A DNA stretch of 64,000 nucleotides, taken from the NCBI GenBank assembly GCA_965226025.1, contig CBDDCD010000003.1:985227-1049226 (forward strand), in the 5' to 3' direction. Shown one piece after another: positions 1,577 to 52,824 of the stretch. Position 1 is the first letter of the stretch, and each line of letters begins with the position of its first letter. The DNA is from Candidatus Moanibacter sp. (GTDB lineage: Bacteria; Verrucomicrobiota; Verrucomicrobiia; Opitutales; UBA2987). The notes below the pieces were generated by a model, which did no database searches, had not been told where the DNA came from, and saw nothing but the letters and a program-made list of their open reading frames with translations. The translations under genes were made by a program, and so were the position numbers.

Positions 1577-3415
1577 CTGGTAAACTAGAGGCTGTCCCAA
1601 ATCCGAGAGGATTTGGGTGGAAGCCTGATACCGATATCAATCTTCGTCACGTTATGTAGACCACGACATGCCTTCCGTCCTCGGTAGCTTACCTTTTATC
1701 CGTTATGCACCTTTCCAGCACCCTTCCTCTCGCTTTGAGTCGATAGTTCTCCCAAGGAAGCGCCTCTGACTCGATTCTTGGATCCCTATGCCGCCTGCGT
1801 TGCCTCTTTCTCATGTTCTTGCGCAAGTCTCTGCGCGATTTTCCATAGATTGTGGGACAGAACCGACCAGGCCACGCTAAGGTTACGGTTGTCAAAGCCT
1901 TTGCTGCGTATCTTGCCCCCGTGCCATCGGTTCTTGAGCACTCCGATCCGGCCTTCGGTGCTCCCTCGTCGTCGCTGCAACCGGACAAAGCGCGGCTCCT
2001 CCATCCGCTCCTTGAGCTCTTGTGGATTGCGGGGCGTAAGGGCGTCAAAAATCCCCTCTGCCTGGAGCCGCTTGCTGGCCGCCTTCGAGGCATAGCCCCG
2101 ATCCCCACTGATCGCTTCGATCTTCTCCTCTAAAGCGAAGCCCTTTTGCCTCTCCAGACTTTCCCAAAGCTGCTTCAATTCGCTCGGGGCCTGCCCCCCA
2201 TACAGTTTCCAGTCCAACAGATATCCCTCTGCGCTCTCGCATAAATAAAGGGTGTTGCCAAACTCCACCTCCCGATCTGCCTTGCCTCGCACGATGACGT
2301 CAATCTCAGGTTCGTAGGCGCTCAGGATCTTCTCCTCATTCTTCACCTGCCGCCCCCCTATGATCCGTTCGTGCGCCTGTTTCATGACCTGCGGTATCTG
2401 CTCTAACATACCATCCATTCGCTCGATGATTCGGCTCGCCTTCTTCTCGGTGTAATCGCTTTGCATCCACATAGCTTCCAATAAGTCACGGTGGCGAAGG
2501 GCATGGCCCTCAATCTTCTTGAGCAATAGCTTCATCCGCCGCAGGATCCCTTTACGCGCTTTGCCCGCCTCCCGGCGCCGACGCGCATGCGTCATCTCCA
2601 GGCACCGTTTGTTCATCTCCCGAGCCAATCCCTTTGCTCCCTGGGGCATGCGCTGTTTCATTCCCGCCTGCCGGATCAGACTGATCGCCTTGAGCAGCGT
2701 TGCTCCCACATCCTTGAGCAAGACCCAGTCCACGGGCCAGTGGATGTTCGCTTCCAGGCAAGTGGCGTCGATCAGGCATTCCCTCGTATCGATCGGCTTC
2801 TCTAATCCTGCCTCACCACAATGTTCAGCATTGCCCACCACCTCGGTCATCCTTGCATGCAGCTGTCTCAGATACGCTTCGTCGAAGAATTTCGAATCCC
2901 GTTCCAGACTGCTCTTCGATATTTTCCGGATCCCGTCTACCTCACGCACCCGGCAAAAATTAGCCAGAAGCTCACTGCGTGCCAACTCCTGCGACAGACA
3001 ACGAAAGGATATCCCTCCGAGTAAATGACGCACCACCTCCACCCGCAGCGCTTTTATCGCTCTTAGAGCGCGTCGCTCCCGATCCTTCCCTCCCGCTTCA
3101 TCCCATCCTTCCAAGGCTTTTACGATCGCCTCCCTTTCCAGCGAGGAGTCGATCAAAACCCGGTCAATCCGCTCCATTGTTTCCAGAAACACGGTGTAGT
3201 CTTTGCATCGAATGACTGGAGTTAGGGCTGGACGCAGGAAGCTTTGTACGGCAATATTTTTCATGAGAAGGGCGTGCTTTGTATTTGACTAACGCAAGCA
3301 TAAGCGCCCTTTTTCGCCGGATCGAGCTTTTTGCAGCTCTATCCGGCCTTTTTTTTGCCCATAACTCATTAAAAATCAATTGTTTCCACCACTGGGACGG
3401 GCTCTAAACTACCAG
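1577..3415 (-). mobile_element. IS5/IS1182-superfamily insertion sequence (~1.84 kb) with imperfect 23-bp terminal inverted repeats
   Basis: Left end CTGGTAAACTAGAGGCTGTCCCA (1577..1599). Reverse complement of right end (3393..3415) is CTGGTAGTTTAGAGCCCGTCCCA, 18/23 identical. Encloses a single DDE transposase ORF. No clear target-site duplication seen. Confidence 0.65.
1786..3264 (-). CDS. DDE transposase, IS4/IS5/IS1182-like
   Basis: 492-aa ORF with candidate catalytic triad contexts LIDATCLEANIHWPVD (D), AISGDRGYASK (D), RRRGSTEGRIGVLKNRW (E). Basic helical mid-region typical of these transposases. Confidence 0.85.
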   Translation of the reverse strand: MKNIAVQSFLRPALTPVIRCKDYTVFLETMERIDRVLIDSSLEREAIVKALEGWDEAGGKDRERRALRAIKALRVEVVRHLLGGISFRCLSQELARSELLANFCRVREVDGIRKISKSSLERDSKFFDEAYLRQLHARMTEVVGNAEHCGEAGLEKPIDTRECLIDATCLEANIHWPVDWVLLKDVGATLLKAISLIRQAGMKQRMPQGAKGLAREMNKRCLEMTHARRRREAGKARKGILRRMKLLLKKIEGHALRHRDLLEAMWMQSDYTEKKASRIIERMDGMLEQIPQVMKQAHERIIGGRQVKNEEKILSAYEPEIDVIVRGKADREVEFGNTLYLCESAEGYLLDWKLYGGQAPSELKQLWESLERQKGFALEEKIEAISGDRGYASKAASKRLQAEGIFDALTPRNPQELKERMEEPRFVRLQRRRGSTEGRIGVLKNRWHGGKIRSKGFDNRNLSVAWSVLSHNLWKIAQRLAQEHEKEATQAA

Positions 3416-6559: not shown

Positions 6560-6674
6560 TCTGAGGGACCCGGAGATGGGGAGACGGGGGGAGCGAGTTT
6601 CGAGTTTCGAGTTCGAGTTGCGCGAATAGGCTTTTCTACGAGCGTGACGCATCGACCCAGCGTCTGAACCAACA

Positions 6675-6758
6675 CCTTGAACCTTGAACCTTGAACCTTG
6701 AACCTTGAACCTTGAACCTTGAACCTTGAACCTTGAACCTTGAACCTTGAACCCTGAA
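6675..6758. repeat. Heptanucleotide microsatellite (CCTTGAA)x11 perfect plus one degenerate unit
   Basis: Read directly. 6675..6751 is 11 exact CCTTGAA units, followed by CCCTGAA. A second short repeat GAGTTTC GAGTTTC GAGTTC GAGTT lies at about 6594..6620. Both sit between two convergent gene ends. Confidence 0.95.
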
Positions 6759-6787
6759 CCCCGTGAGCTGGACAAGCACGCGAGCGA

Positions 6788-8951: not shown

Positions 8952-10934
8952 CTATGCCGAATACTTCTCCCGGAGTTCGCGCCGCATCATCTTATTCGAC
9001 GCGGTGCGCGGCAGACTTTCTACTGTGATCAGATCGTGGATTCTGAATAGCGGGTTTAATCGTTTTCCAATCAAGGTCTGAAGTTCATTCAACAGACTGG
9101 CACGATCTGTTTCTCCTGTGAGGACGGCAAACACGACCAACGCTTCCGCTCCCTCTCCCTCCGGCTGCACTGCGACAGCGGCACTCTCATAGACTTCGTC
9201 ATGGGTATCGAGTATGCGCTCGAGTTCAAGGGAACTTACTTTGATACCGCTCAGGTTCATGGTATCGTCGGACCGCCCTTGGGCTCGGTAGAAACCGTTC
9301 GGCAATCGGGCAATAGTATCACCGTGGCGCCTTAGGACCTCACTGTTTGGTCCAGCCGGGCATCCTGTGTAGTATTCCTCTTCATGGTCCTTGTTCAGTA
9401 GGGTTTGGGACAGTCCGATGGATGGCGGGATGAGATAGAGCTCTCCCATTTCTCCCTCATCGACCGGCTGTCCATCTTCATCGAGGATAAGAAAATCGAG
9501 TCCGAGCGCGGGTGTAGTGAAGGTGGCGGGAGAAGCCGGTTGAACGATCGTTCCGGTGATATGGCCCCCACCGATCTCGGTGCCGCCGAGGTATTCAATT
9601 ACGGGCGCGCGGTATCCGGTCCTGCTCATCAACCAGAGGTAATCTTCGCGATTGGAGGGTTCCCCGGTTGAGCCAAAGAGTCGAATGCCGGTCAAGTCCA
9701 CGCCCTGCCTGGCGCCTGCCGCCCGCCAAGTGCGGACGAGTGAAGGAACCACTCCCAGAAAAGAGACCCCTGCCTTCTCAACGAAGCGGGTGAAGTCGGG
9801 CCCCAAAGGCGCACCCTCGTAGAGGGCCATGGCGGCACTATTCAACAGCGTAGCGTAAATCAGCCAGGGGCCCATCATCCAGCCGATGTTGGTCGGCCAG
9901 GCAGCGATGTCATCGGGACGGATGTCTCCATGGAAGTGACCGTCCATGGCACACTTGAGGGGTGTCAGATGGGTCCACGGAATCGCCTTGGGTGTTCCAG
10001 TTGTGCCGGAGGAAAAGAGGATATTCGAGGGCTCGTAGGGATCTCCCGTTACTGATGTGAAGGAATCTTCTGTGGCAAGAAATTCATCCCAACGAATATC
10101 GTTCTGTCTGAGTTTCTCTCCTTCCTCCGCCGCGATAACGATGGCTCGTTCGATCCCGGCCTCTTTCACCTTATCGTAGAGCCGGACATTTCGCCCCGCC
10201 CGGATATACTGATAAACCGTTAGGATTACCTTTGATCCGGCAATCTCCATCCGCGTCTTGACCTCGTCGGGTGAAAAACTGTCCGCGATCGAAACAACCC
10301 GGCATCCGGCGCGGACGATTCCCAGATAGGCGGCGACACAGGGCATCGTCATCGGCATGTAGATACCGATGGCATCGCCCCGTTCGATTCCGGATTCACC
10401 GAGACCGTTAGCGAATCGATTGGCAAGGGCTTCGAGTTGGCCGTAGGTCGTGATGGTCAAGGCTGAGGTGCCTTCCTTGCAGGAAAGGATAGCTGTCTTG
10501 TCGGCAGGGGCTTGGAAACAGCTGTCCACGATATTCATCTCCGCGCCTGGTAGCCAGCGAGGATTGCTCACGCCGTTGGTCAGATCGAGGATATGATTCG
10601 GTGGCCGAGCGAAGATGATGCCGAGTTTATCGACTACGTACTGCCAGAAGGCGGGCCGGTTTTCGACAGACCAGGCGTGGAGGTCGGCGTAATTGTCGAT
10701 GCCGAGATCCGACATCATTCGGCCGAGGTTGGATGCGGGGATTTCCTCTTTCTTGGGACGCCAGGCTGGGAGAGGGCCGGCGGAAGGGTTTCTCTCCCCA
10801 AAGATACGTTGGAATTCCGCCCAGTGTTGGTCGAACGGGATCGAGCGGTCCTCCCTGGCTTGGGCGATGAATTCAGTCCATTGGGCTTCGATGCCGTCAG
10901 GTGGAAGTAGGTATCCTATGGTGGCGTTGGGCAT
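8952..10934 (-). CDS. AMP-forming acyl-CoA synthetase (acetyl-/acetoacetyl-CoA synthetase-like)
   Basis: ORF 8952..10979. Most plausible start is Met16 (ATG at 10934, MPNATIGY). AMP-binding motif FSSGTTGTPKAIPWTH, plus GWMMGPW, YRAQGRSDDTMNLSGIKV, and C-terminal LPRTASNKMMRR. Confidence 0.85.
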   Translation of the reverse strand: MPNATIGYLLPPDGIEAQWTEFIAQAREDRSIPFDQHWAEFQRIFGERNPSAGPLPAWRPKKEEIPASNLGRMMSDLGIDNYADLHAWSVENRPAFWQYVVDKLGIIFARPPNHILDLTNGVSNPRWLPGAEMNIVDSCFQAPADKTAILSCKEGTSALTITTYGQLEALANRFANGLGESGIERGDAIGIYMPMTMPCVAAYLGIVRAGCRVVSIADSFSPDEVKTRMEIAGSKVILTVYQYIRAGRNVRLYDKVKEAGIERAIVIAAEEGEKLRQNDIRWDEFLATEDSFTSVTGDPYEPSNILFSSGTTGTPKAIPWTHLTPLKCAMDGHFHGDIRPDDIAAWPTNIGWMMGPWLIYATLLNSAAMALYEGAPLGPDFTRFVEKAGVSFLGVVPSLVRTWRAAGARQGVDLTGIRLFGSTGEPSNREDYLWLMSRTGYRAPVIEYLGGTEIGGGHITGTIVQPASPATFTTPALGLDFLILDEDGQPVDEGEMGELYLIPPSIGLSQTLLNKDHEEEYYTGCPAGPNSEVLRRHGDTIARLPNGFYRAQGRSDDTMNLSGIKVSSLELERILDTHDEVYESAAVAVQPEGEGAEALVVFAVLTGETDRASLLNELQTLIGKRLNPLFRIHDLITVESLPRTASNKMMRRELREKYSA

Positions 10935-13798: not shown

Positions 13799-15688
13799 AT
13801 GACAGTTCAGGCTTGGACTTACCTGTTTGTAGCCCTGACTTTTGGCCTCTACCTCGGTATCGCCTGGTGGAGCCGGGTGCGGGACACGATGGGCTTTTAT
13901 GTCGCGGGTCGCGGGGTACCGGCGGTGGCCAACGGTATGGCAACGGCCGCCGATTGGATGAGCGCCGCCTCATTCATTTCCATGGCCGGGTTAATCTCCA
14001 CCATGGGTTATGCCGGAGGGGTCTATCTGATGGGATGGACGGGGGGCTTTGTCTTACTTACCCTGTTGATCGCGCCCTATCTGCGGAAATTCGGCCACTA
14101 CACGGTGCCCGATTTTGTCGGTGATCGATTTCCCGCGGCGGGTGCGGTCGTTGAAGATTCGGCAGCCGTCACCACATCCGTATTGAGGCGGTTAAGCCGG
14201 AATCCTGCCCGGTTGGTCGCGGTGCTATGTGCGGTCTTTATCAGTTTCACCTATGTTGCCGGTCAAATGCGCGGAGTGGGGGTTGTTTTCTCTCGATTTC
14301 TCGAGGTCGACATCAAGATCGGCGTGATGATCGGGATGTCGATCGTCTTCATTTACGCCACCTTGGGTGGGATGAAGGGCATTACGTGGACTCAGGTGGC
14401 GCAGTATTGGGTCTTGATCACTGCCTTTCTCATTCCCGCCTTTGCCATATCGTTCAAATTGACCGGAACCCATTTGCCGCAGGCTGGGCTGGGAGGGACT
14501 CTCCTCGAAAACGGGGCCTTCTTGCTGGATAAACTCGATGCGGTTCAGCAGGACTTGGGATTCTCCAGCTACACGGAAGCCTTCACCGGAGGATGGACCA
14601 AAGCGAATGTTTTGCTGGTCACGTTTGCCTTGATGGCGGGAACGGCAGGCTTGCCTCACGTTATCGTTCGCTTCTACACGGTACGGTCGCCGAGAGCGGC
14701 GCGATGGAGCGGGTTCTGGGCCCTATTCTTCATTGCCTGCCTCTACCTCACCGCGCCTGCCATCGCCGGGTTTGCCCGAACCTACATGCTGCAAACGCTT
14801 AATGAGGCCACCGCCGGGAATCTCCCTCGATGGTTTCAGAGCTGGGAAAAGACGGGACTCATACTCTGGTTGGATGACGGCGACGGCCGTATCAAGTATT
14901 CGGCAGGTGACGAGAATGAGATATTTCGGCGCGGCGCCCTCGGAGAATCCGAATTCATCGAGGTTATCCGTCAGCATCTGCTCTGGATCGACACTGAAGG
15001 AGATCAAGGCGAGGATGGTCGGGCTGTCCTCAGATCTCGGGGGCTGAGTGGTCCCGATCGTGATATCATCGTTCTTGCGACGCCCGAGATGGCGGAACTC
15101 TCCAACTGGATAATTGCCTTTGTCGCTGCCGGCGGGCTGGCCGCCGCTCTTTCCACGGCGAGTGGTCTGCTCCTGGTCATCTCATCGTCCGTGGCGCACG
15201 ATCTCTACTACCGGGTCATTCGGCCCGACGCCAGCGAAAGGATGCGGCTCGGCGTTGGGCGAGGTGTCATTGGCGTGGCCGTAATCATAGCCGGAGTCTT
15301 CGGAATATACCCTCCCGGCTTCGTAAGCCAGGTGGTGGCCTTCGCCTTCGGCCTGGCGGCGGCCAGCTTCTTTCCCGTTATCGTACTCGGTATTTTCAGC
15401 AAGCGTGTCGGCACTTTGCCCGCGGTGTGCGGAATGCTGGTGGGGATCTCTTTCACCGCCTTCTATATTCTGGGCACGGTCTTCTTTGGAATGGAACGTT
15501 GGACCTTCGGGATATTTTCTCAAGGAATCAATCCGCAGGGCATCGGAACCATCGGAATGATCCTCAATTTTGCCGTCACTATCGCGGCCACGCAATTTAC
15601 CGCGCCGCCCAGTAAGGAAGTTCAAGCCATGGTCGACACGATTCGCGAACCCGAGGGCCTCCCACCCGCGGTCGATATCGATCACTAG
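13799..15688 (+). CDS. Sodium:solute symporter family permease (ActP / VC_2705-like large subunit)
   Basis: 629-aa polytopic ORF. GFYVAGRGVPAVANGMATAADWMSAASFISMAG is the SSF signature region. Follows the DUF4212 gene. Confidence 0.9.
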   Translation: MTVQAWTYLFVALTFGLYLGIAWWSRVRDTMGFYVAGRGVPAVANGMATAADWMSAASFISMAGLISTMGYAGGVYLMGWTGGFVLLTLLIAPYLRKFGHYTVPDFVGDRFPAAGAVVEDSAAVTTSVLRRLSRNPARLVAVLCAVFISFTYVAGQMRGVGVVFSRFLEVDIKIGVMIGMSIVFIYATLGGMKGITWTQVAQYWVLITAFLIPAFAISFKLTGTHLPQAGLGGTLLENGAFLLDKLDAVQQDLGFSSYTEAFTGGWTKANVLLVTFALMAGTAGLPHVIVRFYTVRSPRAARWSGFWALFFIACLYLTAPAIAGFARTYMLQTLNEATAGNLPRWFQSWEKTGLILWLDDGDGRIKYSAGDENEIFRRGALGESEFIEVIRQHLLWIDTEGDQGEDGRAVLRSRGLSGPDRDIIVLATPEMAELSNWIIAFVAAGGLAAALSTASGLLLVISSSVAHDLYYRVIRPDASERMRLGVGRGVIGVAVIIAGVFGIYPPGFVSQVVAFAFGLAAASFFPVIVLGIFSKRVGTLPAVCGMLVGISFTAFYILGTVFFGMERWTFGIFSQGINPQGIGTIGMILNFAVTIAATQFTAPPSKEVQAMVDTIREPEGLPPAVDIDH

Positions 15689-15788
15689 GAATCTGTCGGA
15701 CTTTGAATATCGCAACATCGCGGAGGTTCGGATTCAACGGTGAAGGGTGCAAATCTGACCAAGTCCGTGCCGACAGATTCCTGCTAGG
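15685..15788 (+). repeat. Dispersed inverted-repeat element, long (~104 nt) form
   Basis: CTAGGAATCTGTCGGACTTTGAATATCGCAAC...GTGAAGGGTGCAAATCTGACCAAGTCCGTGCCGACAGATTCCTGCTAGG. Its TAG (15686..15688) is the symporter stop codon. Confidence 0.85.
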
Positions 15789-20123: not shown

Positions 20124-20145
20124 GAGGACTAGTACAATGTCCCGT

Positions 20146-20958
20146 CTAAATATTCGGATATAGTTTCTTGAGTTTGATCCTTGCATCATCGGTCGTAAAG
20201 CGCGAATCAATCTTGGACTGGCGTCCGTTGCGATCCCTTTCCCATGCTGAGATTTCTCTGCACATGCTAGCCACGTCCGGAATTCTTCGGTCCAGGCACT
20301 GGCTATTCAGGGCACTGAGTTCGATCTCTGCGATATTGAGCCAACTACCGTGTTTGGGGGTATAATGGATCTCCAATCGCTCGGCCAATGCTCTGGCTTC
20401 GGGGGCCGCAAAGGTCTCGTAGAGAGAGGTAATTGAATGGGTATTGAGATTGTCCATCACAAGAATCACCTTTGCGGCCTCGGGATAGTGCACAATCAAC
20501 AGTTCCCTGATCTGCAGGGCCCAGTCTTTGCGGGTTCTTCTTGCGGTGACGCTGACGTGGCGCCAGCCTCCCAACGGTTCAACGAACAAGAAGATTTCAG
20601 CGACCCCCTTTCGGGCGTATTCATGGTCGTAGCGCATTGGCTTTCCGGGGGCCGTTGGAATAGGCACCTTGACCTCATCGACGAGCTGCTTGCACGATTC
20701 ATCCATGCATATTTGAGGATACATCGGATCGTAGGGAAGATGATATACCGCCAAGATGTCTTCCATGCACGCGACAAAAGCCGCACTCTGTTTTGGCGGA
20801 ATTTTCCAGCACTTCCTCAGGTGAGGCTTAAGTTCGTTGTTTTTAATGCCTTCTGCACTGATGACTTTGAGATCTGCTCGAAGATATCCAAACGCACCAG
20901 TTCTTCGGCCAGAAGCCGCACTGTCCATCGTTTGCGCCCCGGCGGTGGCGAGGAACAA
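20146..20958 (-). CDS. IS630 transposase OrfB (DDE catalytic part, expressed by -1 frameshift from OrfA)
   Basis: Contains ICMDESCKQ (D), VILVMDNLNTHS (D), HGSWLNIAEIE (E). A -1 slip on TTAAAAAC (complement of 20839..20846) joins ...VQKALK to NNELKPHLRKCWKIPP, the usual IS630 junction. Confidence 0.8.
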   Translation of the reverse strand: MFLATAGAQTMDSAASGRRTGAFGYLRADLKVISAEGIKNNELKPHLRKCWKIPPKQSAAFVACMEDILAVYHLPYDPMYPQICMDESCKQLVDEVKVPIPTAPGKPMRYDHEYARKGVAEIFLFVEPLGGWRHVSVTARRTRKDWALQIRELLIVHYPEAAKVILVMDNLNTHSITSLYETFAAPEARALAERLEIHYTPKHGSWLNIAEIELSALNSQCLDRRIPDVASMCREISAWERDRNGRQSKIDSRFTTDDARIKLKKLYPNI

Positions 20959-21278
20959 GCCAAGGCCAGCAACCTTGCCTCTTTTTCACCGTCGAAGATC
21001 GACGGCACCGGGGGCGTTTCCCGTTTCTTGCGGTCCAGCGCCGCTGTCATCCCGCCTTCGACGAAACGCCGTTTCGTATTCTCTACCGTGCGCGACGTTA
21101 CCCCGAGTGCTTGGGCAATGCGGGCACTCGTCCACGCTGGACCCTCATGACCACTGTCACACAACAGCAATGTTCGTGCGCGAACGAATTTCTTCGCTCC
21201 GACTCTGTCCCTCCTGGTCAACAATTCGAGCTCAAACCGTTCTTCGGCGATAAGCTCAATCCGATATCGCTTTGCCAT
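20817..21278 (-). CDS. IS630 transposase OrfA (HTH DNA-binding part)
   Basis: Starts MAKRYRIELIAEER at ATG 21278, preceded by AAGGAGG. Winged-helix / HTH-like sequence. Ends just after the A-run frameshift site. Confidence 0.8.
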   Translation of the reverse strand: MAKRYRIELIAEERFELELLTRRDRVGAKKFVRARTLLLCDSGHEGPAWTSARIAQALGVTSRTVENTKRRFVEGGMTAALDRKKRETPPVPSIFDGEKEARLLALACSSPPPGRKRWTVRLLAEELVRLDIFEQISKSSVQKALKTTNLSLT

Positions 21279-21401
21279 GGCAACCTCCTTTCCTAAGAGT
21301 TGCCAATAATACAATACGAATATTTAATGCGGACAATGTACTAGGTAAGAATCTATCGTTGAGGCTTGCGACAAGGGAGGGATCGGTAGTTTGGTTGCCC
21401 A

Positions 21402-23258: not shown

Positions 23259-23420
23259 ACGATTGAGTGAACGACGGGAGTGGAGGCATCAGTAAGGTCG
23301 CCGAAGTCGTTCACTGAGTCGTGCCCTAAAGTCGATTCGGAGTTCTCGATTACAGTGGACGATTGGGTGGACGACGGGAGGAGATACCGGAAGGGATGTC
23401 GCTGTCGTTCACTGAATCGT
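23259..23420 (+). ncRNA. Candidate structured RNA: two tandem 17-bp hairpins exactly 100 nt apart
   Basis: Unit A pairs ACGATTGAGTGAACGAC (23259..23275) with GTCGTTCACTGAGTCGT (23306..23322). Unit B pairs ACGATTGGGTGGACGAC (23359..23375) with GTCGTTCACTGAATCGT (23404..23420). Arm differences are tolerated as G-U pairs only if the + strand is transcribed. Both loops start GGGAG. Confidence 0.3.
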
Positions 23421-23535
23421 GCACTGCGATCGGATTCGTCTAATCTCGGAAGATTCAGGAGAGTGTGTGAAATATCCGGTCTAAGGAATACGTTGACATG
23501 CAGAAAAGGGCAGTCCATTAATCCGTTTTTTGAGG

Positions 23536-35887: not shown

Positions 35888-35888
35888 G

Positions 35889-35958
35889 CTATGAGTCTGT
35901 CGGAATTTGTAATTCGATTGCTGTGCAAGTGTAAGAGCAAGACCGATCGACTCCTAGC
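35889..35958 (+). repeat. Dispersed inverted-repeat element, short form
   Basis: CTATGAGTCTGTCGGAATTTGTAATTCGATTGCTGTGCAAGTGTAAGAGCAAGACCGATCGACTCCTAGC. Starts 1 nt from the mdh start codon (35885..35887). Confidence 0.85.
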
Positions 35959-41326: not shown

Positions 41327-41401
41327 ACCCTGCTTCGAGTATAATGGGGACAGAAAAAAAGACGTTGACAATTGTTTTGTATGGAGAAAGCGTAGGAGAA
41401 G

Positions 41402-42409
41402 ATGAGAAGGGCGAGATTAAAGATACGGGGTCGGAGGGCGGTGTATCATTGTATATCGAGGACAGTAAATCGGGAGAAGCTGATGGATGGGGTAGCGAAG
41501 GAGGTGCTTAGGAAGCAGCTTTGGCAGATTGCCGATTTCTCGGGAGTGGAAGTGATCACCTACTGTCTGATGAGCAACCATTTCCATCTGCTGATAAGAG
41601 TTCCGGACAAGGAGAAAATTGAGGTGAAGGACGAGGAGTTGATGCGTCGGTACCGGGTTCTCTATCCAAGGAGGACTGAGCACGCACCAGCCGATCCTAG
41701 GGTATTGGAGGAAAAGCTGAAGGAGGGAGGAGAGGAAGGGGAGGCTATCAGAAAGCAGTTGTTGGCAAGAATGCATGATATTTCTGAGTTCATGAAGAGT
41801 CTGAAGCAGAGGTATACGATCTGGTATAACCGAACGCGAGGCCGGGTGGGGACGTTGTGGTCGGAGCGGTACAAGAGTGTGCTGGTTGAGGGGCGCGAGG
41901 CGGCGCTCCGAGTAACAGCGGCCTACATTGAACTGAACCCGGTTCGGGCTGGGTTGGTGGAGGATCCGAAAGAATATCGATGGAGCGGCTACGGGGAGGC
42001 GGTAGGGGGCAGTGAGCAGTCGCGAAGGGGGATCATCGATGCGGTGCAGGGGATTCAGATGGGGAGCTTGAGCTGGATCAGAGCGGCACGGGAGTATCGA
42101 ATACTGTTGTATTGTAAGGGCTCGGGCGTAAGGCCGGCATCGGAACGTGAGGGTAGCTTTCCGAGGGAGGAGTGGGTAGGAGTGATGGAAGCCGGGGGCA
42201 GGATTCCGGTGGCGGAAGCGCTGAGGTGTCGGGTGCGGTATTTCACGGATGGGGCAGTACTTGGATCCCAGACTTATGTTGAAGAGTTTTTCGAGGAGCA
42301 TCGAGATCAATTTGGAAAGAAGCGGAGGAGTGGCTCACGGAAAATGAAGGGGTGCGATTGGGAGGGATTGAGAGTGCTGAGAGATCTGAGGAGGGAAATT
42401 TTCACGTAG
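41402..42409 (+). CDS. REP-associated tyrosine transposase (RAYT, IS200-like HUH/Y1 family) with C-terminal extension
   Basis: 335-aa ORF. YHCISRTVN, HUH motif LMSNHFHLLI, catalytic-Tyr region AAYIELNPVRAGLVEDPKEYRWSGY. Confidence 0.8.
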   Translation: MRRARLKIRGRRAVYHCISRTVNREKLMDGVAKEVLRKQLWQIADFSGVEVITYCLMSNHFHLLIRVPDKEKIEVKDEELMRRYRVLYPRRTEHAPADPRVLEEKLKEGGEEGEAIRKQLLARMHDISEFMKSLKQRYTIWYNRTRGRVGTLWSERYKSVLVEGREAALRVTAAYIELNPVRAGLVEDPKEYRWSGYGEAVGGSEQSRRGIIDAVQGIQMGSLSWIRAAREYRILLYCKGSGVRPASEREGSFPREEWVGVMEAGGRIPVAEALRCRVRYFTDGAVLGSQTYVEEFFEEHRDQFGKKRRSGSRKMKGCDWEGLRVLRDLRREIFT

Positions 42410-47053: not shown

Positions 47054-47935
47054 ATGGAAACCGCAGTGGCAGAAGGAGGTATGGGTTCACTGAGGGAGCG
47101 TTCGCTCATCCGGTTGATCGACGACGAATCACCTGTCGTTCAGGCAGCGGTTCGCGATGAACTGAAGCGACAGGGAGATAAAGGGATTGCTTTCCTGAAA
47201 AGATTGAGCCAGCGACGCAACAGAATTCTCGCCTCACACGCCCGTCAATTTCTCGAGGAGTTGGAAGGACCGGATCCGGTTGCGAGTTTCATCCAGTTCA
47301 TACGGTCGCTCCAGTTTGAACTTGAGACTGGATGCCTTTTGCTCGATCGAACCGTGTATCCCGAGTTGGACACATCCGAATGCTGTATGTTGCTCGATGC
47401 GATCGGCGCCCGATGCCGCGAACTAATGGTCTTGCCGAGTACGCCTTGGGAAAAGTGCAAGGTTCTCAACCGCGTAATCTTTCACGAGTATGGTTTTCGG
47501 GGAAACGTAGAGAACTACGACGATCCGTTGAATAGCTTTATCGGCCATGTTCTTCGTCGACGGAAGGGGCTGCCGATTACCCTTTGCATCGTCTACATCC
47601 TTGCGGCTCAGCGCTGCGGATTGGACCTGGAACCGGTCGGGATGCCCTTCCATTTTCTAGTTGGCTGTTTCTTGGATAAGACTCCCTTTTACATCGATGC
47701 CTTCGAACGGGGAAAATTTCGCACTACGGAAGAGCTCAAGGCAGTCTTGGAGAGGAAGAACATCGAGCCCTTGACGGAATACCTCGCACCATCACCAGTT
47801 TCGGATGTACTGCGTCGATGCTGTGAGAATCTGGTGGACGACTACAGGCACGAAGGTGACCCGGAGCGGGCTCGCCTCTTCGAGAGATTCGTTTTTGAGT
47901 TCGAGGGCACCTATCGTCGGCACGCCAATCCTTAG
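47054..47935 (+). CDS. SirB1/transglutaminase-like-fold protein with C-terminal helical repeats
   Basis: YDDPLNSFIGHVLRRRKGLPITLCIVYILAAQRCGLDLEPVGMPFHFLV matches the SirB1 / Transglut_core2 pattern. Start uncertain (ATG 47054 or TTG 47006). Confidence 0.6.
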   Translation: METAVAEGGMGSLRERSLIRLIDDESPVVQAAVRDELKRQGDKGIAFLKRLSQRRNRILASHARQFLEELEGPDPVASFIQFIRSLQFELETGCLLLDRTVYPELDTSECCMLLDAIGARCRELMVLPSTPWEKCKVLNRVIFHEYGFRGNVENYDDPLNSFIGHVLRRRKGLPITLCIVYILAAQRCGLDLEPVGMPFHFLVGCFLDKTPFYIDAFERGKFRTTEELKAVLERKNIEPLTEYLAPSPVSDVLRRCCENLVDDYRHEGDPERARLFERFVFEFEGTYRRHANP

Positions 47936-48001
47936 GAATCTGTCGGACTTTGACGTTCGATTGCTTCGCAAGTGACCGGGTTCGTCCGACAGCCTCCTAG
48001 C
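47932..48001 (+). repeat. Dispersed inverted-repeat element, short form
   Basis: TTAGGAATCTGTCGGACTTTGACGTTCGATTGCTTCGCAAGTGACCGGGTTCGTCCGACAGCCTCCTAGC. Its TAG (47933..47935) is the stop codon of the upstream gene. Confidence 0.9.
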
Positions 48002-48051: not shown

Positions 48052-48954
48052 ATGGCTACTTTCTCTCTTACTGAGTTGAAGCGGTGGCGTTTTGAGGCCA
48101 CTGCTTTGGCTGTTATCGGTCATCCGATTGAGCATTCAATCAGTCCCGAAATGCACAATGCCGCTCTCACTGCGATGGCAAAAAAAGATGGCGCTTTTGA
48201 GAGTTGGGAATATTTCCGATTTGATATTCCACCCGAACTGCTGCCTGACGCGATTCCACTATTTCACCGCCACCGCTTTAGAGGAATCAATCTGACCCTG
48301 CCCCACAAAGTGCAGGTGATGGACCTGCTGGAAAAGATCGACCCGGTAGCTCGTAGCATGGGAGCGGTCAATACTCTCCTTTGGAGTCCGGAGGGATACC
48401 ATGGATACAATTCAGACGGCTATGGACTGAAACGTGCGCTTGAGGTGGACCTTGACGCGAGTCTACAAGGAGCAGACGTCATCCTCCTTGGGGCGGGAGG
48501 CGCTGCTCGCGCCGCGGCTGTTCAGTGTTTGGAGAGTGGTTGTAAGGAATTGTGGATTGGTAATCGAACGGCGTCTCGCCTTGAGGCTATGCTTGCAGGA
48601 TTGAGAAAATGTAAAGATGCGAATCGGGTTACGGGTTTCAGTTTGTCGGAAATCCCTCGGGAACTCCCGAGGTCGGGAGTTCTTATCAATGCGACATCGC
48701 TCGGCCTGAGGGAGGATGATCCAGCTCCGATCGATACGGCAAGATTCGACCGTTCGCTGAGGATTTTTGATATGGTCTATACCCCGCCAAGGACGACTCT
48801 CATGAAATCCGCTGAAGAGCGAGGTATGCGGACCGCCAACGGACTCTCCATGTTAGTCTGGCAGGGTGTCCGATCCCTGGAGATCTGGAGCCAAGCAGAG
48901 GTTCCGGACGAGACTATGTTCGGGGCCGTAAGAAAGGCGATGTCAGAATCCTAG
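48052..48954 (+). CDS. aroE: Shikimate dehydrogenase
   Basis: 300-aa ORF. VIGHPIEHSISPEMHNAAL, INLTLPHK, GAVNTL, GYNSDGYG, LLGAGGAARA. Confidence 0.9.
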   Translation: MATFSLTELKRWRFEATALAVIGHPIEHSISPEMHNAALTAMAKKDGAFESWEYFRFDIPPELLPDAIPLFHRHRFRGINLTLPHKVQVMDLLEKIDPVARSMGAVNTLLWSPEGYHGYNSDGYGLKRALEVDLDASLQGADVILLGAGGAARAAAVQCLESGCKELWIGNRTASRLEAMLAGLRKCKDANRVTGFSLSEIPRELPRSGVLINATSLGLREDDPAPIDTARFDRSLRIFDMVYTPPRTTLMKSAEERGMRTANGLSMLVWQGVRSLEIWSQAEVPDETMFGAVRKAMSES

Positions 48955-51330: not shown

Positions 51331-52824
51331 ATGAAGTACGAATACTCACGAATGCCGGCGGCGAGTCGGCTGACAAAGGGCGTTCTATTTTCGTTTTGCA
51401 TAGGCGCCGCTTTTTTAAACGGGGGCCTGACTCCGGTGCTGGGGCAACAGCTGAATCTGGTTGTCCTGGCTGAGGTGTCGGGCGAAGTCTCGGTGGTGCA
51501 GGAAGACACCGGTGAAAGCTTTGCGGCGGAGAAAGGGCTCCAGATGTTTGAGGGCTACAGTGTGACCAGTGGAATCAACGGAAACGCGGTTCTTGTATTC
51601 TCGAATGGATCAACCGTGACGGTTCGCGAGAACACCCATCTTTTGATTTCGCAATTCTTCCAAGATCCCCATGAGGAGACTGAGCCGATCGACTCTTGGA
51701 CGCAGGAACCGGGGCGCTCGAATACGGTCCTGAATTTGGACTACGGGAAGATAGTTGGGAGCACGCGCAAGCTCTCGAGCCGCTCCATTTACAGGATCGA
51801 AACACCAGTGGGAATTGCTGGAATCCGCGGTACCGATTGGTTCATTGAAGTCGCAGTTATCACCGCTGATGTCCTGGACGGAGTCTTTGGCGTCACTCAG
51901 GGACTCATGGAGGTAACTCCTCTCGGCGCTCGTTTCACTACCATTGGAGGCAATCAACAGGTGATCGTAAATTTCAGGCAGAAGGACACGGGTATTCCCG
52001 AGGTTGATGTCACGGTCGAGAATGCCCTGACTACCGAGCAGAAGGAGAAAATCCTAGCCATCGTGCAGGCCGCCAATCGAGCCTTGAAGGAAGTGGCCAA
52101 GGAGATGCGCAAGGAGGAAGTCAAGTCCAGGAGAGACGATCGCCGAAGCACGGAAGAAGAGGAGGAAGAAGAAGAAGGCGAACCGAAAAAGATCGATGTG
52201 CAGAAGGAGGAAAAGCGGGATGAGCGGACGGAAGAACGGGATGCTCGTCGAGAAGGTGATGCTACGGCGCAGGAAGAGGGCGACAACAGGGGAGTGGAAG
52301 GTGACTCCGAAGGAGGGACTGAGCCCGTTGCAGCTTCATCCGATTCGCCGCAAGATACGGCGGGATCAGAGGGTGGAGATGATTCGGGCACAACCTCCGC
52401 CGAATCCCGTTTGGAGGCCGCCTTGGACGCCGAAAGTGAAACGCTTTCCAGCGATTCCAATCAGACGGAGACTTCGGGTGATACCTCCTCTGGCGATCAG
52501 ACGGGGGAATTGACGCGGGCCGAAATTGTCGCCGATCGGGTAGAGACCGTGATCGACGCTCAAGAACTGAGTCTTGTCGATGCCGATCGGGATAGACGGG
52601 AGACCATCGTGCGGCGGGCGCGCGAGCAGGAAGTGGGAACGACTGAGAGACTTCGAAGCGAACAGAGATCACAGGTCGGCGGTGCAGAGACGACTGTTAC
52701 TGTCGACCTGGGTCAGTTCGATCTGGAAAATGTCATCGACGCGGTCGGCGAACAGCTGCAAGACCCGACCGAGACGCTGGGCGCGAGAGCGGACGCCGAT
52801 TCGCGGCGGCCCAGGACGCCGTAG
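51331..52824 (+). CDS. FecR-domain protein with long hyper-acidic low-complexity C-terminal half
   Basis: 497-aa ORF. Signal-like N-terminus. FecR-like beta region (SGINGNAVLVFSNGSTVTVRENTHL...IETPVGIAGIRGTDWFIEV). Then EEEEEEEGEPKK... and D/E/S/T-rich sequence. Confidence 0.6.
   Translation: MKYEYSRMPAASRLTKGVLFSFCIGAAFLNGGLTPVLGQQLNLVVLAEVSGEVSVVQEDTGESFAAEKGLQMFEGYSVTSGINGNAVLVFSNGSTVTVRENTHLLISQFFQDPHEETEPIDSWTQEPGRSNTVLNLDYGKIVGSTRKLSSRSIYRIETPVGIAGIRGTDWFIEVAVITADVLDGVFGVTQGLMEVTPLGARFTTIGGNQQVIVNFRQKDTGIPEVDVTVENALTTEQKEKILAIVQAANRALKEVAKEMRKEEVKSRRDDRRSTEEEEEEEEGEPKKIDVQKEEKRDERTEERDARREGDATAQEEGDNRGVEGDSEGGTEPVAASSDSPQDTAGSEGGDDSGTTSAESRLEAALDAESETLSSDSNQTETSGDTSSGDQTGELTRAEIVADRVETVIDAQELSLVDADRDRRETIVRRAREQEVGTTERLRSEQRSQVGGAETTVTVDLGQFDLENVIDAVGEQLQDPTETLGARADADSRRPRTP

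Follow-up and report, generated by a model that had tools for sequence, protein, structure and literature searches.

The Y1 transposase gene and its product

The window analysed here is a 64,000-nucleotide (nt) stretch of contig CBDDCD010000003.1 from Candidatus Moanibacter sp. (Verrucomicrobiota), which contains a gene for a protein of the HUH/Y1 transposase superfamily and a family of short hairpin-forming repeats. A preliminary description of this DNA had called the gene a RAYT-type transposase and a candidate mobilizer of the repeats. Our analysis points to a different arrangement, in which the gene probably encodes a TIRYT-like enzyme that is one of at least eight old paralogs and is separate from the repeats. 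The gene and its 5' flank show the following features.

41346 to 41353, plus strand: GGGGACAG box, which starts 56 nt before the ATG and fits the TIRYT flank motif GGGGWSAS (PMC3733652, PMC6006769)
41402 to 42409 including the stop codon, plus strand: open reading frame (ORF) of 335 amino acids (aa) for a Y1/HUH transposase-like protein, probably a TIRYT-like class 2 TnpA-Y1 (ORF list, Pfam, alignment, model and BLASTP)
41579 to 41587, plus strand: HUH motif codons H60-F61-H62 within NHFH, with N59, H60, F61 and H62 invariant in 35 homologs
41621 to 41770, plus strand: helical insertion of ~50 aa at residues ~74-123, following the HUH strand (Pfam, alignment and model)
41924 to 41941, plus strand: catalytic tyrosine motif Y175-I-E-L-N-P180, the class 2 'Y---NP' signature (alignment; signature table of PMC6006769)
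41999 to 42406, plus strand: C-terminal extension, residues 200-335 (alignment, model and Pfam search)

The ATG start of the ORF is preceded at 6 nt by AGGAG, a Shine-Dalgarno-like sequence. The N-terminal motif MRxRRLK is conserved in 34 homologs, indicating that this long start is correct and that the database version of the protein (P0001, 308 aa) is 27 codons short. Pfam family Y1_Tnp (PF01797) matched the ORF with 57.5 bits (cutoff 23), in two parts because of the insertion that follows the HUH strand. Both motifs named in the preliminary description were found, SNHFHLLI at residues 58-65 and YIELNPVRAGL at residues 175-185. Across the alignment of 35 homologs, N59-H60-F61-H62 and Y175/L178-N179-P180 were invariant and conservation spanned the whole length, with the tyrosine motif reading YIELNP in the window protein and YIDLNP in the family consensus. 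The C-terminal extension includes a nearly invariant motif, LRCRVRYFTDGAxLGS (42221-42268), and its 135 aa matched no Pfam domain in any of the 35 aligned family members (E≤1).

An AlphaFold (AF2) model of the protein had a predicted local distance difference test score of 68 overall, with 80-93 in the core blocks and poor values in the C-terminal third. Foldseek matched this model to ISDra2 TnpA, IS608 TnpA and E. coli TnpA-REP (4ER8) with a probability of 1.00. A σ70 promoter scan around the gene returned no site, folding of its flanks as single-stranded DNA (ssDNA) gave no significant hairpin (z-scores +0.5 to +1.0), and neither Rfam nor tRNA scans returned a match in the window. The ORF is confirmed as an intact HUH/Y1 gene of the RAYT-like class, not one for an IS200-type TnpA.

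Subfamily placement

TnpA-Y1 proteins are divided into class 1 (IS200), with the signature Y---Q, and class 2 (TnpA-REP-like), with Y---NP (Quentin et al. 2018, PMC6006769). Subclass 2.1 consists of long proteins with NH[YF]H and YIELNP that lack repetitive extragenic palindromes (REPs) and is largely made up of the TIRYTs of Di Nocera 2013 (PMC6006769); most TIRYTs are assigned to subclass 2.1 (Quentin et al. 2018, PMC6006769), which equals Bertels group 1. TIRYT-like proteins are not known to mobilize REP-type repeats. In the grouping of Bertels et al. 2017 (PMC5581495), association with REPs or REPINs is limited to groups 2 and 3. Subclass 2.3 proteins are ~325 aa long, have a 55-aa insertion after β3 and are multi-copy without REPs (PMC6006769).

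The preliminary description had proposed placing the protein among the RAYT groups, and for this comparison 25 RAYT and TIRYT sequences were rebuilt from Di Nocera Additional file 5 and compared with the window protein by BLASTP. The closest were the TIRYTs psu_2716, sse_3670, pfs_148A, hch_1378, cps_4446 and tkm_1558 (69-77 bits, E 1e-17 to 1e-19), as against 20 bits for the canonical RAYT b228 of E. coli, 19 bits for ote_2468 of Opitutus terrae and 30-38 bits for RAYTs of Pseudomonas and Stenotrophomonas. The NHFH and YIELNP motifs also fit the subclass 2.1 signature (NH[YF]H; YIELNP or Y[IV]HLNP). The NCBIfam RAYT equivalog NF047646 scored 63.4 bits, under its cutoff of 80, and the NCBIfam IS200 model scored 23 bits, under its cutoff of 55. 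The label 'RAYT-type' therefore holds at the level of the class only, given the class 2 Y---NP signature, and its extension to a REP-associated RAYT is not supported. By these pairwise BLASTP scores, which are not a full phylogeny, the window protein appears to be a TIRYT-like class 2 TnpA-Y1 nearest to subclass 2.1, with an insertion positioned as in subclass 2.3.

The resemblance to TIRYTs and their TIRtrons (PMC3733652) includes the top BLASTP scores and the shared motifs NH[YF]H, GTLW-x-x-R-[YF]-KS and YIELNPVRAG; the C-terminal LRCRVRYFTDGAxLGS motif also looks, by eye, like the '..LGSxxF..' motif near the C-terminus of published TIRYTs. It extends to the genes, which have a GGGGWSAS box upstream at a fixed distance, lack REPs and occur as several diverged copies per genome; TIRYT flanks are described as carrying GGGGWSAS 'at about the same distance' from the coding sequence (PMC3733652). 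In contrast to published TIRYTs, the window protein is ~100 aa longer because of the insertion after the HUH motif and a longer linker, and it has no Bac_DnaA_C, HTH_23 or HTH_28 Pfam match (35 members, E≤1). In addition, the window and most homologs lack an inverted box downstream of the gene, and the strong expansion in Verrucomicrobiota is not covered for subclass 2.1 in the Di Nocera and Quentin papers.

Membership in subclass 2.3 (Chromatiales/Alteromonadales) was considered and rejected after alignment with two Alteromonadales proteins bearing the 2.3 signature (NHYH/NHTH, FWEGRFKS, YVDLNP), which were 23-26% identical to the window protein. Both are ~325-335 aa long, carry an insertion where the HUH strand leads into the next core helix, end in a long C-terminal tail and lack REPs, and their genes occur several times per genome. 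However, the window protein has NHFH and YIELNP rather than NHYH and YVDLNP, lacks the 10-aa β1:αA insertion and has an unrelated distal C-terminus; in the alignment, only the position of the insertion (55 conserved aa at β3:αC in subclass 2.3) is shared. Searches of a plasmid collection found only distant relatives of the window protein (<33% identity). Upstream of a 2.3-like gene on a Pseudoalteromonas plasmid (L119, 630-700), there is a tandem duplication of a ~37-nt unit with CCTGACACCC, and an inverse GGGTGTC lies 12 nt ahead of the ATG; this upstream repeat may be the counterpart of the box in another subclass.

Two better-known groups share the HUH/Y1 fold with the window protein. Canonical REP-associated RAYTs (E. 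coli YafM/TnpA-REP, 4ER8; O. terrae 2468) also have Y---NP, but they are ~150-190 aa long and single or few in copy, whereas the window protein, at 335 aa, is about twice as long, is multi-copy, lacks REP or REPIN flanks and has low BLASTP and sub-cutoff NCBIfam scores. TnpA proteins of IS200/IS605 (IS608, ISDra2) have the same catalytic residues and gave the best PDB matches, but they differ in having Y---Q instead of Y---NP; in addition, the window gene has neither subterminal hairpins at its flanks nor tnpB, and its paralogs are 60-75% identical, whereas IS200/IS605 copies are near-identical.

Paralogs of the Y1 gene

Eight paralog loci were read (P0001 to P0004, P0030, P0035, P0053 and the window), with 60-75% aa identity. 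P0002, which is 75% identical to the window protein, lies on a contig whose dnaK-groEL region matches the window at 99.9% identity and which therefore comes from the same species. P0003, P0004, P0030, P0035 and P0053 are on contigs from the same samples with matching coverage, and we infer that they belong to the same genome as the window; P0031, P0032, P0034, P0046, P0054 and P0073 are further same-genome candidates, placed by the hit table on contigs with the same lengths. The closest reference genome, a metagenome-assembled genome (MAG) of Candidatus Moanabacter sp., carries five paralogs that are 64-67% identical to the window protein. The preliminary description had named clustering with IS200/IS605-type multi-copy transposases that have distinct ends as evidence against a link to the repeats; the gene proved to be multi-copy, with a conserved 5' box of its own.

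Each of the eight paralogs stands alone among housekeeping genes unrelated to it, and no two of them are syntenic; the closest homologs, P0002 and P0003, occupied different neighbourhoods in the synteny comparison. The box or a variant of it is present in seven of the eight, including GGGTCAGG in P0035 and GGGTCGGG in P0030. Ratios of nonsynonymous to synonymous substitution rates (dN/dS) between paralog pairs were 0.06-0.15, with dS saturated, and the window gene is 100% identical in four strain contigs. Thus, the paralogs are old and selectively maintained, not decaying copies of an insertion sequence (IS).

A metagenome scan for an empty site, made with the 770-aa MoCoBD protein encoded upstream of the Y1 gene, recovered relatives at 82% and 77% identity without a Y1 gene; their downstream contexts differ and no exact site was obtained. 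In the relative with the 82% identical MoCoBD gene, the next gene after ThiS is a different one and not a Y1 gene. Upstream of P0035, comparison of L124 with L125 showed that the similarity of one strain to the others ends ~127 nt before the Y1 gene, and at that break rve/Mu-transposase-domain genes replace a malic-enzyme gene.

A conserved box at the 5' boundary

Nearly every homolog is preceded by an A-rich stretch followed by the heptamer GGGACAG, which in Opitutaceae typically reads AAGGGACAGGTTAAAAATAnTTGAC and in the window starts at 41347, 55 nt before the ATG. Of 42 homolog loci, 33 had an exact GGGACAG in the 130 nt upstream (chance ~0.008 per locus), in most cases 50-62 nt from the ATG, and five further loci had it with one mismatch. 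In many loci a TTGAC-like hexamer follows the box. The extended box motif is rare away from Y1 gene starts in ~0.8 Mb of flanks, indicating a gene-specific signal rather than a dispersed repeat. No inverted copy of the box was found within 1.2 kb downstream of the window gene, and a significant one was found at only 3 of 31 homolog loci (L011, L040 and L041).

Short exact tandem duplications with a period of 9-22 nt adjoin the box in 11 of 42 loci, compared with 10 of 420 control windows, which suggests recurrent DNA processing at that boundary. Loci with duplications next to the box include L011, L012, L014, L015, L017, L026, L027, L033, L034 and L045, with five 22-nt copies in L033.

The extent of the repeated unit was apparent in a distant relative, the Kiruna bin MAG, which holds copies of 88-91% nt identity whose similarity runs from 5 nt before the box to the stop codon. 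The repeated unit there is therefore box-to-stop, and in this relative the family was copied as such a unit. An internal-deletion copy and a 5'-truncated copy in the same bin have a common breakpoint, within 2 nt, at GCAAGGGCACC (L046 ~9971-10570; L047 ~142-720). The deletion copy consists of the box and 25 nt fused to codon ~148, and the breakpoint site is box-like and lies inside the invariant G-T-L-W codons. Many homolog matches in other genomes stop at contig edges. Two further arrangements were seen, two family genes of full length in tandem, both preceded by a box (L017, 10001-12171), and a partial duplication of the box and the first 83 codons (L031, 1040-2508).

The hairpin repeat family and its position at stop codons

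The repeat family reported in the window is real, with 19 matches to TAGGAATCTGTCGGAC at up to 3 mismatches compared with 0.61 expected. Its copies are mostly inverted doublets of 63 nt or ~95 nt, which end in 14-20 bp of inverted GGAATCTGTCGGAC with TA or TAG directly outside at most ends; at the left flank TAG is preceded by C, T or A, and most right flanks read CTAG. As ssDNA the elements fold well beyond shuffled sequences (z −3 to −7). The gene is not directly flanked by the repeats, as had been recognized in the preliminary description, and the nearest copies, at 35890 and 47933, lie ~5.5 kb on each side; both are given as context only.

35888 to 35958, no strand assigned: nearest upstream hairpin repeat, with a degenerate right arm
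47931 to 48001, no strand assigned: nearest downstream hairpin repeat, 63 nt, with its TAG serving as stop codon for the gene before it

A resemblance to the boundary logic of REPs had also been pointed out. The NTAG boundary and the inverted hairpin doublets are indeed seen, but the anatomy of GTAG plus a short palindrome appears to be missing: the tag is TA/CTAG rather than GTAG/CGTC, a single element arm does not form a palindrome, and the loci examined contained no flanked RAYT.

The elements are frequently found at gene ends. The terminal TAG of the element is the exact stop codon in 11 of 22 strict gene-end cases, and 10 of these 11 genes are unrelated to Y1. By looser scoring, an element arm is present in the stop region of ~25% of TAG-terminated genes in the sampled loci. 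Within the window, TAG serves as stop codon at 15686-15688, 47933-47935, 48952-48954 and 52822-52824, and other such sites are in L005, L008, L010 and L064; in three cases the TAG is mutated and the ORF extends 6 codons into the element. Strain comparisons made in search of empty sites of the element gave only IS and tandem-repeat polymorphisms, all elements being fixed.

Relationship between the Y1 gene and the repeats

A mobilizing role for the enzyme, as initially proposed, found no support in the positions of the repeats. In the element-bearing clade, a half-site occurs within 300 nt of 2 of 18 Y1 gene ends, compared with 45 of 241 other gene ends. At P0002, P0003 and P0035 a half-site starts at or just after the stop codon, and these half-sites were considered as a link to Y1 and rejected, as the same arrangement occurred at 15% of the other genes and at 25% of those with a TAG stop. 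In this control, which used local-alignment scoring of the stop region from −28 to +60, adjacency of the Y1 genes was at chance level, with a half-site in 3 of 12 Y1 genes versus 21 of 136 other genes (Fisher p=0.30) and versus 14 of 55 TAG-stop genes (p=0.64). Since unrelated genes show the same arrangement, adjacency is a property of the element and not of Y1 genes.

Co-occurrence across genomes, which had been suggested as a check, also spoke against the link. The element was found in the window, in other contigs of the species and in the Moanabacter MAG, and no copy was present in the 10-20 kb on either side of homologs with 40-51% identity in 12 other genomes. Counts of 13-mers in the genome groups tested revealed no abundant dispersed repeat but the box in homolog flanks, and the repeated 13-mers of the Kiruna bin fall inside the multi-copy Y1 gene itself. 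Judged from these comparisons, the hairpin repeats appear to be an independent element family, unlinked to the Y1 gene.

Insertion sequences and the origin of the repeats

If not the Y1 enzyme, a DDE transposase might move the repeats, for example one of IS630/Tc1 type targeting TA in CTAG; the repeats would then be its miniature inverted-repeat transposable elements (MITEs) and the Y1 gene an unrelated bystander. The terminal inverted repeats of 14-20 bp, the division into elements of 63 and ~95 nt and the TA/TAG outside GGAATCTGTCGGAC at most ends agree with this explanation, and the presence of element TAG at stop codons is as expected for a TAG/CTAG target. Moreover, two different IS630-family ISs of the species insert at CTAG and duplicate TA (window 20133-21340; L002). 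However, the ends of the two IS630 copies and of an 1821-bp DDE_Tnp_1 IS do not match the element, except for a 9-mer, GAGGCTGTC, in common with one variant. No autonomous copy was found between element ends in ~1 Mb of loci, and where inverted half-sites lie 1-2.4 kb from each other, the genes between them are ordinary ones. Nor was an empty site recovered that would show a TA duplication, and the elements are fixed among strains, whereas the ISs are polymorphic. On balance, we regard a MITE origin of the repeats as a plausible but tentative account, falling somewhat short of an even chance.

The ISs and other strain-variable stretches of the window have the following properties. The IS630-family IS at 20133-21340 is 1208 bp long, lies at CTAG with a TA duplication and has DDE_3 and helix-turn-helix ORFs on the minus strand; it is missing from same-species contigs L060, L108 and L110 and is therefore a recent insertion. 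The 1821-bp DDE_Tnp_1 IS (1586-3406, minus strand) has 99.8% identical copies elsewhere, in L001 and L005, with target duplications TAGTTTA, TACCTA and TAAATA, and its inverted repeats contain GGGACAG. In one strain (L111, 1-686, corresponding to the window site at 15783), another IS, with a 591-aa transposase and a faint DDE_Tnp_1_4 match, ends at the CTAG to the right of the 94-nt element at 15688-15781, and the sequence left of that site, element included, is replaced within the stretch read. A (CCTTGAA)n array at 6660-6771 varies in copy number between strains, being much shorter in L060 than in L061 and the window, and a 98-nt tandem duplication at 23282-23425 is present in the window and L061 and not in L060.

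Proposed role of the Y1 gene

We propose, with a probability of roughly 0.6, that the gene encodes a TIRYT-like HUH/Y1 enzyme that is one of at least eight old paralogs and is separate from the hairpin repeats. The product would be an enzyme that nicks and joins ssDNA, as expected of the HUH/Y1 superfamily, with H60 and H62 coordinating a divalent metal and Y175 attacking ssDNA to form a covalent 5'-phosphotyrosine intermediate. At least eight diverged paralogs under purifying selection appear to share one Moanabacter-like Verrucomicrobiota genome. The conserved unit would comprise the A-rich stretch and GGGGWSAS box, ~50 nt and the ORF, ending with the stop codon. The box at its 5' boundary may be the cis site of the enzyme itself, as an end, an operator or both, and probably overlaps the promoter. 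By analogy with the distant relative, the family may have spread as this box-to-stop unit, its present mobility in this genome probably being low or none. The hairpin elements, for their part, would insert with their terminal TAG at or over the stop codons of many genes.

Several points weigh against this proposal. The C-terminal domain is modelled with low confidence and has no Pfam match. The counts of paralogs and elements come from sampled loci that represent part of the genome, which makes the number of paralogs a lower bound. Nucleotide similarity between the paralogs is limited to the ORF; they are old and offer no proof of mobility in this genome. The downstream inverted box, absent in the window and rare among homologs, raises the possibility that the box is only a promoter or operator. 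The sequence GACAGA(A/T)T is common to the box and the inner arm of the element, which may be chance. Finally, the Y1 enzyme could conceivably act in trans on the hairpin elements.

The Y1 gene might instead be a fully domesticated and immobile host gene, with a function in, for example, ssDNA processing or regulation, and its box a promoter or operator only. Strong purifying selection (dN/dS 0.06-0.15) and the identity of the gene across strains are in keeping with domestication, as are the old paralogs without a conserved 3' end or inverted repeat and the TTGAC-like hexamer after the box in many loci. Nevertheless, full domestication seems unlikely in view of the 88-91% identical copies with sharp box-to-stop boundaries in other genomes, the internal-deletion and 5'-truncated copies, the tandem gene duplicates, the many matches ending at contig edges and the tandem duplications that accumulate at the box, as well as the relative with an 82% identical upstream neighbour gene and no Y1 gene after ThiS.

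Two more far-reaching variants are together improbable in our estimation. In the first, one TIRYT-like lineage acts in trans on the TAG-ended elements, which, if true, would constitute, for the PVC superphylum, a REPIN/RAYT kind of partnership based on the TIRYT branch. In the second, the box and gene form a one-ended Y1 element; this would be an undescribed element with the GGGGWSAS box as its left end, and its activity would leave behind short tandem duplications at the box as well as copies that lack the 5' part and begin at an internal site similar to the box.

Also quite doubtful is a REPIN/RAYT system in which the protein is a RAYT that mobilizes the TAG-bounded hairpin doublets in trans from an unflanked locus: the class 2 RAYT-like catalytic motifs, the strong ssDNA hairpins, the co-occurrence of the element with the closest paralogs in the Moanabacter-like clade, the half-sites that P0002, P0003 and P0035 have at or close to their stop codons and the GACAGA(A/T)T shared by box and element arm would fit it, but the protein is nearest to TIRYTs (mostly subclass 2.1, Bertels group 1) rather than to the REP-associated groups 2 and 3 and scores below the NCBIfam RAYT cutoff, its gene has at least eight paralogs rather than one or few and is unflanked in the window and in seven of nine clade loci (within 300 nt) with adjacency at the background of TAG-terminated genes, and the elements appear to lack REP anatomy and are missing from homolog flanks in 12 other genomes.

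Significance

The analysis corrects a tempting but unsupported pairing of a 'RAYT' with nearby repeats. For annotation, the presence of an element arm at the stop region of TAG-terminated genes may be of more practical use. The novelty of the protein is modest, as an elongated Verrucomicrobiota addition to the known and functionally uncharacterised TIRYT/subclass 2.1 proteins. The results place a very large Verrucomicrobiota family (>5,800 database homologs, E≤1e-5) in this uncharacterised TIRYT branch of HUH enzymes, and the 5' box, together with the unit boundaries obtained from one distant MAG, provides concrete oligonucleotide substrates for the first TIRYT biochemistry.

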